A stretch of 64,000 nt of DNA. Source: Escherichia phage vB_EcoM_IME392. Positions 53,701 to 58,902 of this stretch are shown piece after piece (position 1 is the stretch's first letter; each line of letters begins with the position of its first letter). The position numbers and the translations under genes were made by a program. The notes beneath the pieces were generated by a model. It did not search any database and had not been told where the DNA came from. It saw only the letters and a program-made list of their open reading frames with translations. The stretch lies in the sequence record MH719082.1. One strand, given 5' to 3'.

Positions 53701-54324
53701 TTAGAAACGATCGCGACCTACGATTGGCGCGACTGGTTTAAAGTCAGTCTGGTCGTAACCTTTGTAAAGGTCGTAGCCACCACCAGCTATCTCAGTAAAG
53801 TAGATTTGCCCGATTCTCATATTAGAACGTAGGCGTATAGTATTAGGGCTTAAATTCACGATCTCCAAAGTGAACGCTCCTTTAAAGCCGTAGTCTCCAT
53901 AGCCTGCGCTAACGTGTGATAGGATACCTAAACGTGCCATAGTACTGCGACCGTCGTAATGCTGACAGAATGCTACACCACGGTCTACCGCGCTGTTACG
54001 GTAACGTGGGTCGTAATGCGCGAACCACTTCTCAGGCAACATAGCAGTACAGTCGATACGTTCTGATGCAGAACCTAATATGAACTCCCTAGGTTTAAGG
54101 TCGTAGTATAGCGCCTCTACTTCACGATACTCCGGAAGAGTACATGGTTTATAGGGATCTACTACATGGCCATCAGGCATCTTTTGAGGAACCAGGAAGA
54201 ACGGAGCTAAGCGTACATCTACACTATTCTGTCCGATTCGTGGTTCCTGATTGTCCAGATAACTGTGATAGGTCCATAATCCCTGAGTAATTGCCTGCTC
54301 AATATAAGATTTACCAAGGATCAT
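53701..54324 (-). CDS. dCTP deaminase-like protein (dUTPase superfamily)
   Basis: 207 aa; SVDVRL and DGRSTMARLGI match Dcd blocks. Confidence 0.65.
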   Translation of the reverse strand: MILGKSYIEQAITQGLWTYHSYLDNQEPRIGQNSVDVRLAPFFLVPQKMPDGHVVDPYKPCTLPEYREVEALYYDLKPREFILGSASERIDCTAMLPEKWFAHYDPRYRNSAVDRGVAFCQHYDGRSTMARLGILSHVSAGYGDYGFKGAFTLEIVNLSPNTIRLRSNMRIGQIYFTEIAGGGYDLYKGYDQTDFKPVAPIVGRDRF

Positions 54325-54509
54325 TACGGATGCTCCAGCATGTTCTTAACAGATTCTTCATCTGTAGCTTCTACGGCAGCATTATGATTCTTGAATGCTC
54401 CCCAGATATCATCAGATACGATCATAGTCTTAGGAGCTAAGTGCTCCGAACGAATAACCGTAATCTGGTTACGGTTAAGGTCCTTAGTTAGTTGCTCAAT
54501 ATCCATCAT
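54324..54509 (-). CDS. small hypothetical protein
   Basis: start at internal ATG 54509 after GAGGAA. Confidence 0.4.
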   Translation of the reverse strand: MMDIEQLTKDLNRNQITVIRSEHLAPKTMIVSDDIWGAFKNHNAAVEATDEESVKNMLEHP

Positions 54510-54527
54510 ATTCCTCGGTTCTATGGT

Positions 54528-54560
54528 AGAATAACATTGACCTCTCCTCAAAGAGGTCAA
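54528..54560 (-). terminator. hairpin terminator candidate downstream of dUTPase
   Basis: 9-bp stem TTGACCTCT/AGAGGTCAA, 6-nt loop, weak T-tract. Confidence 0.35.
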
Positions 54561-54591
54561 TAGTAATTACCGTAGTCTAACTACCCTGGGA

Positions 54592-55062
54592 TTACTTAAT
54601 CCCGGAATGCCCAAACCCACCGTCGCCACGTTCAGAAACATCAGAGAATTTATCCACGAGCTGAAACTCTGGCTGGATAACGGGAAGGAACACCATTTGT
54701 GCGATGCGGTCGCCGTGGTTAATAACGAAAGATTCGTTACTACGGTTCCACACAGACACCATCAGTTCGCCCTGATAGCCGGAGTCGATAAGACCAACCA
54801 GGTTACCCAGTACGATGCCATTTTTATGGCCGAGGCCGCTGCGGGGAAGAATCACAGAAGCGATGTTCGGATCTCCGATGTTGATCGCCAGACCGGTAGG
54901 GACCAGGATAGTTTCACCAGGATTTACAGCGATTTTATCGATTTCATCAGTCTTAATCATCGCACGAAGATCAAGACCAGCATCACCAGCTTTAGCGTAT
55001 TTCGGTAACTCCAGAGAGTCGTCCCAGTTAATAGTTTTCTTTACTTGAACTACAGTCATCAT
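54592..55062 (-). CDS. dut: dUTP diphosphatase (dUTPase)
   Basis: 156 aa; near-identical blocks to bacterial Dut: [57 protein letters not shown]. Confidence 0.9.
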
Positions 55063-55439
55063 GATGCCCTTTTGTACTGTTTAATGAATGCTGCGCAGAT
55101 GCTGGTGAAGAGGTGATCTTTGACTCGATGCTCTTCCGGCAACCGTGAATATGGAACCATACACGGGTGCGTCTTAGCTGCGAGATCTTTGATTTCTCCA
55201 TACTTCCAGCCCTGCTCCTTTTTAGTTTTAACCCAGAATTCATGGGACTCTTCTGGGCTTACACGGTTATTGTGCAAGCAGTTATACGCTCCATCAATAG
55301 CCGACTGTTTTATTTCATCGGATGTTGCTTCCCAGCTTAATTGGGTGAAGTCTCCGATAGAGTGACAGTATGCACGATTAGCTTCGTGACATACCTTAGC
55401 CACCATCAATACGATTTCTTCTCGGGTCATATGAGACAT
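55059..55439 (-). CDS. hypothetical protein
   Basis: 126-aa ORF overlapping dut start. Confidence 0.5.
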
Positions 55440-55663
55440 TATTTACCCTTGTGACGTTGCTTATTAATCTTACGGCCTTTAGCCTTCTTAGCCGCACGCT
55501 TTAATGCGGATGCTGTGGTAGTCTTCGGGCAGCTTACCTTAGCATAGACATGACGGAATCCGTCACGGCCTTTAACTGACACTGCTGGGGTGGACCACAT
55601 ACGACTTAACCCAGCCAGAGCCATACCGATACCGCCTAACAGACCAATACGACGTGATTGCAT
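55439..55663 (-). CDS. small basic membrane-associated protein
   Basis: 74 aa; AAGGAA RBS; motif copy 18 bp upstream. Confidence 0.45.
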   Translation of the reverse strand: MQSRRIGLLGGIGMALAGLSRMWSTPAVSVKGRDGFRHVYAKVSCPKTTTASALKRAAKKAKGRKINKQRHKGK

Positions 55664-55680
55664 AGAGATTTCCTTTCCAA

Positions 55681-55715
55681 CGGTTTAACAGCCTTTGGAG
55701 GCTACGAAAGAGCGG
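55681..55715 (-). promoter_or_regulatory. conserved leftward promoter-like motif, copy 9
   Basis: CGGTTTAACAGCCTTTGGAGGCTACGAAAGAGCGG. Confidence 0.45.
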
Positions 55716-56025
55716 AATCTTCGTCAGGTAATGAATTAACGAAGTCAGCTATAACTTGAGCATGACATGGTAAAGGCAAGCAGGAGCACCCTAAAGTCTT
55801 ACCCTTAAGAGTCCGTAAGTAAGAGATGCTTATGTGGCCATCTTTTACTTGCTGATGGAACCATAGTTTATATTTCGCGATGGCTAATGTTCGGGAACCT
55901 ACGTTAATAGCGTTAGGTAAATCTTTATGGCTCCACTTATTCCCGAATATAGTACCTCTCCCAACATATAGATCATAATTAGGATTGGTACGTATATTAA
56001 CCACCCTACAAAGTTTACTCTCCAT
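55702..56025 (-). CDS. DUF4326-like protein
   Basis: 107 aa; VVNIR...YDLYVGRG...GNKWSH...LKGKTLGCSCLPLPCHA pattern. Confidence 0.45.
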   Translation of the reverse strand: MESKLCRVVNIRTNPNYDLYVGRGTIFGNKWSHKDLPNAINVGSRTLAIAKYKLWFHQQVKDGHISISYLRTLKGKTLGCSCLPLPCHAQVIADFVNSLPDEDSALS

Positions 56026-56728
56026 CTTCTACAGAATTACCCTGCAGAGCAATCATGGTATTCACCTCATGCTCCAGATCTTGTAGATCTTTTACTCGGT
56101 TAATAGTTCGAACCCAGGTCTTAGCTTCCAGCATCGCATCGAACAGTGCATGGTGATCAGACATAGACTCATGCTGGCTACGCAGTTCTTCTTTAATCAT
56201 GCGACGATCATCGAATGAGATCAGCTGCAGACTAGCCAGAGTACGGTAATCACGATTCATCCAGTGCAGGAACGGAGACTTACGACCTTTAGCCTTAAAG
56301 TACCAGTCCAGGAATCCTTGGTCGAACTCTGGTGCGTTACCGATGAAGTTCAACATCTGGCAACCAGGATCCTGTAGTACCTTAGCTACGTACTCTTCGA
56401 TGATATCCAGAGCTTCGTCAACAGATACCGGATTAGCATATGCAGCATCACGGACGGGTTTCGGGAGAGTGTTGAGCCACTCTACTACATTAGGGTCCGA
56501 CTTCATACCCAACGCCAGTGACTCTTCGCGATCGATAGTGAAGTAGACATGGGAGTAATGCTCTGGACCTATAGTTACCATGCCTACCGACAGAACTACA
56601 CCAGGCTCTTTGAAATCGAGATACTCAGTCTCGATGTCGATTGCGCAGTGATAGGAGTCGTGATATGACAGGAATCGGTTAAACAGTTTATTCGGAGCCA
56701 GATGGTGTGGCATCATCTTAGTAGACAT
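56015..56728 (-). CDS. DEDDh-type 3'-5' exonuclease
   Basis: 237 aa; Exo I AIDIETEY, Exo III HHALFDAMLEA; AAGGA RBS. Confidence 0.6.
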   Translation of the reverse strand: MSTKMMPHHLAPNKLFNRFLSYHDSYHCAIDIETEYLDFKEPGVVLSVGMVTIGPEHYSHVYFTIDREESLALGMKSDPNVVEWLNTLPKPVRDAAYANPVSVDEALDIIEEYVAKVLQDPGCQMLNFIGNAPEFDQGFLDWYFKAKGRKSPFLHWMNRDYRTLASLQLISFDDRRMIKEELRSQHESMSDHHALFDAMLEAKTWVRTINRVKDLQDLEHEVNTMIALQGNSVEDGE

Positions 56729-56755
56729 CGGTTATCCTTATCAGTTGAGGTGCGA

Positions 56756-56790
56756 CACTTTAACAGCCTTTCGAGGGTAAGAAACGGCGG
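56756..56790 (-). promoter_or_regulatory. conserved leftward promoter-like motif, copy 10
   Basis: CACTTTAACAGCCTTTCGAGGGTAAGAAACGGCGG; 27 bp upstream of start at 56728. Confidence 0.45.
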
Positions 56791-56792
56791 AA

Positions 56793-57146
56793 TTAATCTT
56801 TATTCACAGTATACCCTAGACTGGTTAATAATGTATCTACTTCAACGGCATCATATACTGGAGATGCCTTACCTACTGTGATATGATCTGTGTAATGAAT
56901 TTTAGGAGTAGTTACTTTACGCTCTCTACCCGAGAGGAATTTTACTGCATCCTCAACATTACTATTATGATCACCAGTCCAGCCATCATCAATAGCCATC
57001 TGAATAATACGGTGATGAATAGCTCGGTTTTCGGCATTCTCTACTCTAGCCTTACTCAGATTAGCCTTAGTAGTGTCTAATTCCTGTCGTACTGAGTTAT
57101 ATCGCTCTTCCCAGCGTCCGTCATGAATTTCAGTATCTTCAGCCAT
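56793..57146 (-). CDS. hypothetical protein
   Basis: 117-aa ORF with RBS. Confidence 0.5.
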   Translation of the reverse strand: MAEDTEIHDGRWEERYNSVRQELDTTKANLSKARVENAENRAIHHRIIQMAIDDGWTGDHNSNVEDAVKFLSGRERKVTTPKIHYTDHITVGKASPVYDAVEVDTLLTSLGYTVNKD

Positions 57147-57378
57147 TACGTGCCTTCTTAAGATGCCATTGTGCTACCCACCAGAATGTAGTTCCTGGTG
57201 CAGAGTAGTTATTGAATAACCCACCATTACTAAGCAGACTCTTAGCTGCTCGACGATGACCACGACGCTTCTTGCGAGGATCGAGTTTAACTGCTTGAGC
57301 TACTTGCTCATAGGTATCATAACCCACGATCTGCATGCTCCCAACCGCATTAGTTACTGCTTGGATAGGTTGTTCCAT
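57139..57378 (-). CDS. hypothetical protein
   Basis: start at internal ATG 57378 after GGGAG. Confidence 0.45.
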   Translation of the reverse strand: MEQPIQAVTNAVGSMQIVGYDTYEQVAQAVKLDPRKKRRGHRRAAKSLLSNGGLFNNYSAPGTTFWWVAQWHLKKARNG

Positions 57379-57394
57379 AATTACTCCCAACGTT

Positions 57395-57424
57395 AAATAA
57401 AAATAGCGCTCCCTAAAGAGCGCT
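57395..57424 (-). terminator. rho-independent terminator (leftward)
   Basis: stem AGCGCTC/GAGCGCT, loop CCTAAA, followed on - strand by ATTTTTATTT. Confidence 0.5.
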
Positions 57425-57432
57425 AAGATAGG

Positions 57433-57606
57433 TTAGTCTTCTTCGCCCCACTCATCATCGTAGGCCTGCTTAGGAGTCTTACCTTCATCGTAATCATCCC
57501 GCCAGGCTTCCGCATCAGCAGCGCTACCGCCACGAGACTGAGCGTATTGGTGCAGCAGTTTATGCCACTCCGCAAACGATCCTGTCTCCTTAGTCATTTG
57601 TTCCAT
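57433..57606 (-). CDS. small acidic protein (absent from ORF track)
   Basis: ATG 57606 after GGGAGGAG; 57 aa MEQMTKETGSFAEWHKLL...DDEWGEED. Confidence 0.4.
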   Translation of the reverse strand: MEQMTKETGSFAEWHKLLHQYAQSRGGSAADAEAWRDDYDEGKTPKQAYDDEWGEED

Positions 57607-57624
57607 AACTAACTCCTCCCGAAG

Positions 57625-58092
57625 TTACATTAATAATCGTCCGAGCATGTTAATACCAGTAAGGACGGACTTGTACTCCTCACGGGTCATACCCCAGAAA
57701 GAGTCTCCGTGGGTATTTCCTTCGACCAGCTCCTTAGGCCAAGTATCGGTCAATTTTTGAGCTAGCTCCCCACCTTTCGCGAATTTAATCCGGAGTAGGT
57801 GTTCCATTACGTCTACTCGCTGTTCCTTCCACGATTCAGTAATGGGTAGCTTACGTCCATATCTCTTGGCCTCACCAGGAGTATGAAGTCTAGCTATGAT
57901 AAGACGATGGGCTAGCGATGGAGACTTAGATGCTTGATAGGCATGCTCCACACTAGGGTAAGTAAGGGAGGGAAGAGTCTCGTTCCCGTAAGGATTCTTA
58001 TCCTCAATATGAACAGGATAAAAGTTAGATAGGAATCGGTACTCTCCGCTAAACTCCAGAATAGAGTTCTTGTCGGTCCAGATCCGCATCAT
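57625..58092 (-). CDS. NADAR-domain (YbiA-like) protein
   Basis: 155 aa; FLSNFYP, SVEHAYQASK, VMEHLLRIKF, LVEGNTHGDSFWGM. Confidence 0.7.
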   Translation of the reverse strand: MMRIWTDKNSILEFSGEYRFLSNFYPVHIEDKNPYGNETLPSLTYPSVEHAYQASKSPSLAHRLIIARLHTPGEAKRYGRKLPITESWKEQRVDVMEHLLRIKFAKGGELAQKLTDTWPKELVEGNTHGDSFWGMTREEYKSVLTGINMLGRLLM

Positions 58093-58658
58093 CCCTCCAT
58101 AAATGCACGTTCAATGCGGCACACATCACATAGGTCTTTACCCAGCTGACGAGTACCATGCTTCTCGCAATATCCAGTACGGGATTCACGAGTTAATTCA
58201 CGTAAGATACGCTTGGCCTCTAGATCAGCACATCCCTTATCCAGCTCAGCACTAAACTGTTCGGCACTCATAATCCCTAACGACATCTCCGCCAGCTGTT
58301 CCCTATTTAACTGGCTATTTCCGTCACCAGTTAGGAACCAGTCCTTAACCCACCAGTAGCGATAATGATGCTTGGGATGACGATTATGTATTTCCATGCA
58401 GTCGTCCAGAGTTAGGAACTTAACCTGCTTATCTTTCCAGATGAATGGTTTATCGAACGGTATGTCGTCACGATTATCGTAGCATGCCCACTGAGGAACT
58501 GGACAGCCATCGCCATCTATCATCTGGTAGTGGAACTCTACTTGCATCTGTAGCATCTCTACTCGGGAATAGAATCGTTCGTGGTAGAAGACTACTACGC
58601 TCTTACCATGCTCCGGTACAAAGTCTTCAAGACTCTGCATACTGAAATTAATTGGCAT
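58089..58658 (-). CDS. hypothetical Cys-rich protein
   Basis: ORF; start chosen at internal ATG 58658 (GGTGAG RBS). Confidence 0.45.
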   Translation of the reverse strand: MPINFSMQSLEDFVPEHGKSVVVFYHERFYSRVEMLQMQVEFHYQMIDGDGCPVPQWACYDNRDDIPFDKPFIWKDKQVKFLTLDDCMEIHNRHPKHHYRYWWVKDWFLTGDGNSQLNREQLAEMSLGIMSAEQFSAELDKGCADLEAKRILRELTRESRTGYCEKHGTRQLGKDLCDVCRIERAFMEG

Positions 58659-58902
58659 GTTTCTCACCAAGATCGCGGAGGTAGTGGAACCCTTTCGTGC
58701 ACGCTATCTCGGCCAGTTTAGTTATGATAACTGCCACGATCACGAAAGGGATTAACGGCCAAAATACCGTAGCCAATGCTGTGTAGCCACCATGCTTAAT
58801 ACGGAATCTGCCAGTCACATAGGCTGCAATCGGATAAACGATGATCCCACCGATGACATAAGCAATCATCAGTCCCACGATCATATTATCAGTAAAGTAC
58901 AT
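58648..58902 (-). CDS. small membrane protein (2 TMD)
   Basis: 84 aa, two hydrophobic segments. Confidence 0.5.
   Translation of the reverse strand: MYFTDNMIVGLMIAYVIGGIIVYPIAAYVTGRFRIKHGGYTALATVFWPLIPFVIVAVIITKLAEIACTKGFHYLRDLGEKHAN

Follow-up and report, generated by a model that had tools for sequence, protein, structure and literature searches.

A prematurely ended NADAR gene beside an exonuclease-DUF4326 pair in Escherichia phage vB_EcoM_IME392

Escherichia phage vB_EcoM_IME392 (MH719082.1) encodes a NADAR-domain protein, a DEDDh 3′-5′ exonuclease and a DUF4326 protein within the 64,000-nucleotide stretch analyzed here (the window, to which all coordinates refer unless a contig is named). 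All genes between 53.7 and 58.7 kb lie on the minus strand, so that the NADAR gene (57625-58092) is read first, followed by the exonuclease gene (56015-56728) and the DUF4326 gene (55702-56025). An earlier note, made from the sequence without database searches, had called these three open reading frames (ORFs) and proposed that their products act together against host defence. The positions were confirmed, and the domain calls were upheld by Pfam and PHROGs, with all three families scoring above the Pfam cut-offs. The phage belongs to a group of E. coli phages with genomes of ~111-116 kb, its own being 116.5 kb. In the phage collection it has a single near relative, Escherichia phage EP_H11 (111 kb), which is 92.5% identical in nucleotide sequence and has all its genes annotated as "hypothetical." A more distant relative is contig logan:SRR10902858_9818 (L086), the exonuclease of which is 79% identical to that of the window.

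The NADAR gene encodes 155 residues, or 154 from the second ATG, and residues 2-155 are identical to AXY86136.1 of vB_EcoM_IME392. The product scores 84.7 bits with PF08719 (cut-off 35.1, E=1e-23), aligning to profile positions 9-156 of 163, and it also matches phrog_1017 (E=1e-34). The FLSNFYP, EHAYQASK and GDSFWGM signatures on which the earlier call had been based are all present. Residues E49, K56, K76, G79, R80, W88, R92, E124, D130 and W133 are the counterparts of all the residues that serve ADP-ribose binding or catalysis in the Phytophthora NADAR structure 8bau; the roles of these positions are taken from the Pn enzyme (E43, K50, R79, W89, R93, D130 and W133, together with the subfamily-defining E125; PMC11543638). 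The glutamate at position 124 places the protein among the YbiA-type NADARs rather than the DarG1-type (Asp) or T4-type (His). Among solved structures, the profile matches are E. coli YbiA (2b3w, E=1e-33) and 8bau (E=3e-19).

The predicted structure is consistent with these matches. The AlphaFold2 (AF2) model of a 99%-identical, 218-residue relative has a mean predicted local distance difference test score (pLDDT) of 86 overall; the NADAR part averages 88-98 in most of its 10-residue blocks and 75-76 in blocks 1-10 and 31-40. This full-length model adopts a YbiA-like alpha-helical core fold, and Foldseek aligns it to 2b3w (E=5e-9, template modelling (TM) score 0.70) and 8bau (E=6e-8, TM score 0.64). 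The NADAR assignment of the earlier note is correct. The best NCBIfam match, TIGR02464 (riboflavin-intermediate N-glycosidase), scored 63.0 bits and fell under its cut-off of 73.7, and membership of NF053876 ("NADAR family anti-phage protein") was ruled out at 55.6 bits against a cut-off of 240.

By tblastn, the NADAR subfamily of the window is found in 461 phage records. After EP_H11, the best matches from cultured phages are those of Ruegeria phage Tedan (49%), Citromicrobium phage RXM (47%) and T5-like phages (43-45%), the last including IrisVonRoten, which is Bas32; one T5-like homologue is annotated "antitoxin-like enzyme" in its GenBank record. The alignment with NADAR-Bas32 extends over 147 residues at 44% identity (E=7e-30). 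No DarT or ART family was found among the Pfam matches of the scanned neighboring ORFs, leaving the NADAR gene an orphan.

The window NADAR gene is distinguished from its relatives by its 3′ end. A TAA codon at 57625-57627, identified by DNA alignment with EP_H11, terminates the protein directly after "…GINMLGRLLM," whereas EP_H11 has AAA (Lys) at this position and continues KLREELIMEQ… to a length of 218 residues. A metagenomic relative (P0154, 99% identical) also has AAA and the 218-residue read-through form. In the 90%-identity cluster, which is drawn from independent assemblies, six of nine entries are 218 residues long, two are fragments, and only the IME392 entry is 154 residues long. 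The more distant NADAR of L086 ends in "LLMKIRGELLTFSK". In all 84 phage homologues compared, the tail after LLM is at least 6 residues long and the Arg at +3 is invariant; the same residue (R157) is nearly invariant in an alignment of 99 sequences. The C-terminal helix, with its LLM-x-x-R-x-x-L motif, is incomplete in the window NADAR. In the AF2 model of the 218-residue form the terminal helix spans residues 148-169, from which the window protein would keep ~7 of 22 helix residues and lose ~15, about two thirds of the helix.

The codon at 57625-57627 also determines the form in which the sequence downstream is made. A 57-residue acidic ORF (57433-57606, minus strand; phrog_519, E=6e-19) follows in frame with the NADAR gene and has its own GGAGG Shine-Dalgarno sequence and ATG; in the relatives it is the C-terminal part of the 218-residue fusion. 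The sequence CTTCGGGAGGAG both codes for the helix residues LREE and serves as the Shine-Dalgarno sequence of the 57-residue ORF. A single base (TAA versus AAA) switches the region 57433-57627 between a 155-residue NADAR with a separate 57-residue protein and the 218-residue fusion, and the 57-residue module could still be made from its own ribosome-binding site despite the TAA. In 196 phage records, some of them of Ackermannviridae-sized genomes, a small gene of this family stands alone.

The exonuclease (237 residues) is of the Rv2179c-like/T4 DexA family. It matches PF16473 at 67.9 bits against a cut-off of 27 (E=1e-18) as well as phrog_255 ("exonuclease"), and it aligns with RNase T over the three Exo motifs, with the DEDDh set present as D31/E33 (DIE), D136 (NAPEFD) and H192-x4-D197. 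The DUF4326 protein (107 residues), which is T4 NrdA.1-like, is encoded by a gene with an 11-nucleotide overlap with that of the exonuclease. It matches PF14216 at 63.3 bits against a cut-off of 25 (E=3e-17) and phrog_464, and contains the invariant residues of the family (G22, R23, G28, N29 and C80-x-C82-x-P84-x2-C87-H88). Its AF2 model has a pLDDT of 95.7, and structure comparison with this model found no confident solved structural relative.

Word-based searches for homologues of the exonuclease and DUF4326 proteins returned the EP_H11 lineage alone, and the DUF4326 family was then searched exhaustively. It is represented in 2,013 phage records and 2,447 representative clusters. Among 33 longer homologues, DUF4326 is fused to SLOG (9), NADAR (2), Macro (2), RNase H, DNA methylase and an ExoX-like C-terminal domain. 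The prediction of Iyer, Burroughs and Aravind, in whose work the same fusion pattern appears, is that DUF4326 processes ribose-linked phosphates of ADP-ribose (ADPr) derivatives (PMC9503650, PMC7824862). The closest exonuclease homologue outside the lineage, at 28% identity, is that of Acinetobacter phage Ab1-TPeters (110 kb; L087 4004-5330). In Ab1-TPeters a NUDIX gene comes directly after the exonuclease gene, with genes for an endolysin and a dCTP deaminase next, a layout that parallels the window, with the NUDIX protein in the position of DUF4326. A search of the literature on NrdA.1 and on Rv2179c-family exonucleases in phage defence returned nothing functional.

A repeated motif marks the boundaries of the exonuclease-DUF4326 pair. 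Its core, AAAGGCTGTTAAA, has 14 matches in the window, where 1.3 would be expected; 12 of the 14 are on the minus strand, and the motif extends to ~36 nucleotides as CCGCTCTTT-N-CGAAAGGCTGTTAAAGTGT (also given as CCGCTCTTT-N7/8-CG-AAAGGCTGTTAAAGTGT). The 12 minus-strand copies are all intergenic and upstream of minus-strand ORFs in two early-gene blocks, with cores at 2864-2876, 3850-3862, 5315-5327, 6842-6854, 7025-7037, 7083-7095, 7688-7700 and 8712-8724, and at 55684-55696, 56759-56771, 59478-59490 and 60875-60887. The motif is probably a phage-specific promoter or regulatory site; a scan for sigma-70 promoters found no excess over shuffled sequence. One copy (CCGCYSTTT-N-CGAAAGGCTGTTAAAGTGT, 56755-56790, minus strand) lies 31 nucleotides upstream of the exonuclease ATG. 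A second (55680-55715, minus strand) overlaps the 3′ end of the DUF4326 gene and precedes a 74-residue gene, and by its position closes the exonuclease and DUF4326 genes into a two-gene cassette. Motif positions around the pair are also occupied in EP_H11, L086 and a further relative contig, L005. The earlier note had each of the three genes behind its own motif copy. This is true of the exonuclease gene (56759-56771), but DUF4326, overlapping the exonuclease gene, has no copy of its own, and the nearest copy upstream of NADAR (59478-59490) is 1.4 kb and five ORFs away.

The NADAR gene is instead joined to the gene before it. A 193-residue gene (58089-58670, minus strand), with a weak DUF5662 match below the cut-off, ends in a TGA that overlaps the NADAR ATG (ATGA), which suggests translational coupling. 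Downstream of the NADAR gene and the 57-residue ORF, an intrinsic-terminator-like hairpin (57394-57425, minus strand) has a 9-bp stem with 5 G-C pairs and a loop of 4, followed by TTTTTATTTA; the terminator scan predicts it at 57425-57404 with a T-run, between the NADAR/57-residue unit and the next ORFs. These ORFs, of 83 (57139-57390) and 117 (56793-57146) residues on the minus strand, occupy a variable spacer (56793-57390) and have no matches in Pfam, PHROG or NCBIfam. The last ~36 residues of the 117-residue ORF (…HYTDHITVGKASPVYDA…LGY) are 64% identical to a C-terminal extension on the L086 homologue of the 193-residue gene (L086 1333-2025), a shared tail that points to module shuffling among small early genes.

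Downstream of the pair, a module at 53701-55663 consists, in order on the minus strand, of the 74-residue basic ORF (55439-55663), an RyR-domain gene overlapping both of its neighbors (55059-55439; Pfam E=6e-13), a dUTPase gene (54592-55062; Pfam), a 78-residue ORF, and a gene for a dCTP-deaminase-like protein (53701-54324; Pfam, and TIGR02274 of NCBIfam). This order, with the RyR gene, is also found in L005 and L086. A second terminator-like hairpin, with a stem of 12 bp, separates the dUTPase gene from the 78-residue ORF (54535-54562, minus strand). Taken together, the overlaps, motif copies and hairpin downstream of NADAR predict the units […193 aa-NADAR-57 aa], terminator, [83 aa-117 aa], motif, [exonuclease-DUF4326], motif and [74 aa-RyR-dUTPase-…-dCTP deaminase], in which NADAR would be transcribed separately from the exonuclease and DUF4326 genes.

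Comparison with the relatives likewise separates NADAR from the pair. The order in L086 is NADAR, genes of 69, 189 and 100 residues, a Lar-like gene, motif, exonuclease, DUF4326, motif, a 75-residue gene, RyR and dUTPase, so that the pair and the downstream module are kept and the interval after NADAR varies. The two NADAR proteins are only 51% identical, compared with 74-82% for their neighbors (74% for the 193-residue gene). This low identity and the Lar-like restriction-alleviation gene between NADAR and the exonuclease in L086 (PF14354; L086 3846-4076) suggest that NADAR occupies an exchangeable accessory or anti-defence slot, or hotspot.

The wider distribution of the three families is similar in this respect. 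Within 10-kb flanks of the NADAR homologues on 80 viral contigs, a DexA-like exonuclease was found at none and DUF4326 at 5, counts close to those expected by chance for large genomes. In T4 the three families are dispersed, with DexA (PF16473) at 8.2 kb, gp30.3 at 128.3 kb and NrdA.1 at 142.7 kb (14-134 kb apart), and NrdA.1 lies between td and nrdA, overlapping nrdA. In T5-like phages an Rv2179c-like DEDDh exonuclease, bas32_0070 (L002 6626-7327; 34 bits against a cut-off of 27 by Pfam, and recognized by an exonuclease hidden Markov model as well), is encoded 1.2 kb downstream of NADAR-Bas32; the gene is misannotated as a metallopeptidase in Bas32 and stands as "putative metallopeptidase" in many T5-like records. 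The T5-like exonuclease is present in 532 phage records and NADAR in roughly 100 enterobacterial records, which indicates that in these phages the exonuclease is core and NADAR accessory. Synteny with Citromicrobium phage RXM was considered and rejected: the DEDDh exonuclease following its NADAR gene is of the RNase_T family, with no detectable homology, and the next gene is not DUF4326. On this evidence the joint action of the three genes proposed in the earlier note is not supported, given the hairpin, two ORFs and promoter-like motif that separate NADAR from the pair and the dispersal of the families elsewhere.

There is experimental precedent for a counter-defence role of NADAR itself. T4 gp30.3 (AdfN) strips DNA of ADP-ribose and is both required and sufficient to counter DarTG1, its function depending on E36 and K43, and NADAR-Bas32 as well as NADAR-Bas60 neutralize DarT1 and rescue DarTG1-sensitive phages (Johannesman, Carlson & LeRoux 2024, PMC11257639). 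The earlier suggestion that a phage NADAR could counter guanine ADP-ribosylation by DarT is therefore sound for the class, and already published knowledge. By its sequence, the window NADAR is a homologue of a tested AdfN-class member, an orphan carried by a lytic phage. By analogy with NADAR-Bas32, an intact form would release ADP-ribose from the guanines of phage DNA by hydrolysis of the N-glycosidic bond, erasing DarT1 lesions so that replication could proceed in DarTG1 hosts. The particular copy in IME392 is another matter, ending prematurely and lacking the C-terminal helix segment. In RB69, adfN lacks its last 15 residues and is non-functional, and RB69 is uniquely DarTG1-sensitive. Since a truncation of this length inactivated RB69 AdfN, the window NADAR may be crippled as well, and its counter-defence activity has probably, at chances close to even, been weakened or lost. 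The protein is thus best described as a new member, to all appearances a damaged one, of the AdfN class of counter-defence enzymes already known.

For the exonuclease and DUF4326, the most likely role is nucleotide salvage or precursor supply for phage DNA synthesis. This is suggested by the dUTPase and dCTP deaminase genes immediately downstream, by the position of T4 NrdA.1 between td and nrdA, by the membership of DexA in the same Pfam family as the exonuclease, and by the thymidine hypermodification that is predicted for this phage group. Like T4 DexA, the exonuclease would degrade oligonucleotides or fragments of host DNA to mononucleotides, and DUF4326 would have an accessory enzymatic role, with a nucleotide or ribose-phosphate compound as its substrate. 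We therefore regard it as probable, though with some reserve, that the region, which is part of a leftward block of early or middle genes, holds two separate things: an orphan AdfN-class NADAR, truncated in this phage, and an exonuclease-DUF4326 cassette for nucleotide supply.

As an alternative, the physiological substrate of NADAR could be an N-glycosidic ADP-ribose or ribosyl conjugate other than DarT1-modified guanine, the candidates being soluble immune signals derived from ADPr, cytidine-ADPr, intermediates of the riboflavin pathway (as with YbiA) and a phage base-modification intermediate. The closeness of the protein to YbiA in profile and in Glu124 is in keeping with this, as are the rank of TIGR02464 as best NCBIfam match, the removal of cytidine-ADPr by YbiA-type NADARs (PMC12945103), and the view of Iyer et al. 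that phage NADARs mainly target soluble ADPr derivatives (PMC9503650). The phage also encodes a SLOG protein, and NADAR homologues are present in the base-modified phages PhiW-14 and AR9. Yet every phage NADAR tested so far counters DarTG1, including the YbiA-type Bas32 enzyme; no riboflavin genes lie nearby, and the TIGR02464 score is under its cut-off. We consider a substrate of this kind unlikely.

A further proposal follows the hypothesis of the Aravind group, in which DUF4326, SLOG and NADAR would form a dispersed set degrading ADP-ribose-derived signaling molecules, and the adjacency of the exonuclease and dUTPase genes to DUF4326 would be incidental. It draws on the fusion pattern of DUF4326 and the published prediction (PMC9503650), and on a SLOG gene directly upstream of DUF4326 in another contig (L094). 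A YpsA-family SLOG gene is also present in the window, in the other early block (7870-8352, minus strand; Pfam E=8e-7); as SLOG is the commonest fusion partner of DUF4326, the phage can be said to carry SLOG, NADAR and DUF4326 at three separate sites. This dispersed set likewise strikes us as doubtful, and no more or less so than a different NADAR substrate.

A single pathway against DNA ADP-ribosylation, in which NADAR removes ADP-ribose, the exonuclease excises strands with unrepaired adducts and DUF4326 cleans up the ribose-phosphate products, finds some encouragement in the three genes lying within 2.4 kb in the window, EP_H11 and L086, in the fusions of DUF4326 to NADAR, SLOG and Macro domains and in the exonucleases near NADAR in Bas32 and Tedan, but is very improbable in view of the hairpin and separate promoter-like motif between NADAR and the pair, the intervening genes that vary among close relatives, the 80 NADAR loci, the core and accessory status of the two genes in T5-like phages, the dispersal in T4, and a NADAR gene that is broken in the window beside an intact exonuclease and DUF4326.

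Several points weigh against the division of the region into a damaged NADAR and a nucleotide-supply cassette. The transcription units are predictions drawn from a scan for consensus terminators and from a motif whose function is unproven. An Rv2179c-like exonuclease is close to NADAR not only in Bas32 but also in Ruegeria phage Tedan (2.8 kb), and DUF4326 is fused to NADAR in 2 of the 33 long homologues, so that some functional connection is possible; these fusions are a weak link that keeps a small probability alive for the three-gene anti-defence cluster, which is otherwise not supported. The TAA at 57625-57627 could be a sequencing error, and the effect of the truncation is judged from conservation and from a distant homologue, RB69, of another subfamily. 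As to activity, E. coli YbiA and T4 gp30.3 in one study hydrolyzed guanine-linked ADP-ribose in vitro but gave no rescue from DarT1 toxicity (PMC11125620). YbiA-type NADARs thus differ in vivo, and 44% identity to NADAR-Bas32 is no guarantee of DarTG1 protection.

The most useful lead from this locus is the natural allele pair at the NADAR C-terminus. If the truncation is genuine, IME392 (TAA) and EP_H11-type phages (AAA) offer a natural comparison for the role of the C-terminal helix and its invariant Arg, limited by the ~92.5% identity of the two across the region. From the two it could also be learned whether de-ADP-ribosylation specific to guanine is still needed by a phage with predicted thymidine hypermodification. 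Both EP_H11 and IME392 are listed among the predicted thymidine-hypermodifying phages, a prediction that cites dCTP deaminase, dUTPase, a thymidylate-synthase homologue, aGPT-Pplase and an SP15-like DNA polymerase (PMC12686479; bioRxiv 10.1101/2025.03.26.645540), with dUTPase and dCTP deaminase as the dUMP supply route for the hypermodification in the two phages (PMC12686479). In the other early block of the window, a superfamily 2 (SF2) helicase (ResIII/Helicase_C) is encoded at 679-2319 and a weakly matching glycosyltransferase-like protein, with a DXD region (E=5e-4, below the cut-off), at 3889-4680, both on the minus strand; the two may be relevant to the predicted hypermodification. For DUF4326, the uncharacterized family of T4 NrdA.1, present in ~2,000 sequenced phages, the coupling to a DexA-like exonuclease provides a concrete context for testing. 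The region is also a caution that the proximity of genes should not be read as function, the exonuclease and DUF4326 being better explained as nucleotide-supply genes.

Among known systems, the closest to the window NADAR include the AdfN class of orphan phage NADARs and, within it, NADAR-Bas32 (bas32_0066) of the T5-like phage IrisVonRoten. NADAR-Bas32 and the window NADAR are both orphan single-domain NADARs of lytic coliphages with the catalytic set E, K, E, D and W, encoded in an early replication and nucleotide-metabolism region with an Rv2179c-like exonuclease close by. They differ in that the window copy ends 14 residues sooner, without the conserved x-V/I-R-x-x-L tail, and in that its lineage usually has the 218-residue form with the 57-residue acidic module, which T5-like phages lack. 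T4 AdfN has its own Pfam family, Phage_30_3, and no BLASTP similarity to the window NADAR. E. coli YbiA (2b3w) and the Phytophthora enzyme (8bau) are the best solved-structure matches, and their ADP-ribose-binding residues are kept; unlike them, the window protein is phage-encoded, truncated at its C-terminus, and below the cut-off of the riboflavin N-glycosidase equivalog. As in RB69 adfN, a naturally occurring premature stop has cost this phage NADAR ~15 residues at the C-terminal end of its terminal helix, but the RB69 protein is of another NADAR subfamily and was shortened by a frameshift rather than by a single nonsense codon.

The exonuclease resembles T4 DexA and M. tuberculosis Rv2179c in its PF16473 domain (T4 DexA, E=2e-22), its DEDDh motifs and its status as an early phage gene. 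It has no pairwise BLASTP similarity to T4 DexA, and it is coupled to DUF4326, whereas T4 DexA is not. The DUF4326 protein is 41% identical to T4 NrdA.1, with which it shares the GRG…GN and CxCxPxxCH motifs and a place next to nucleotide-metabolism genes. The partners in these arrangements are different: T4 NrdA.1 overlaps nrdA, whereas in the window the DUF4326 gene overlaps the gene of the DexA-like exonuclease and is followed by those for the RyR protein, dUTPase and dCTP deaminase.

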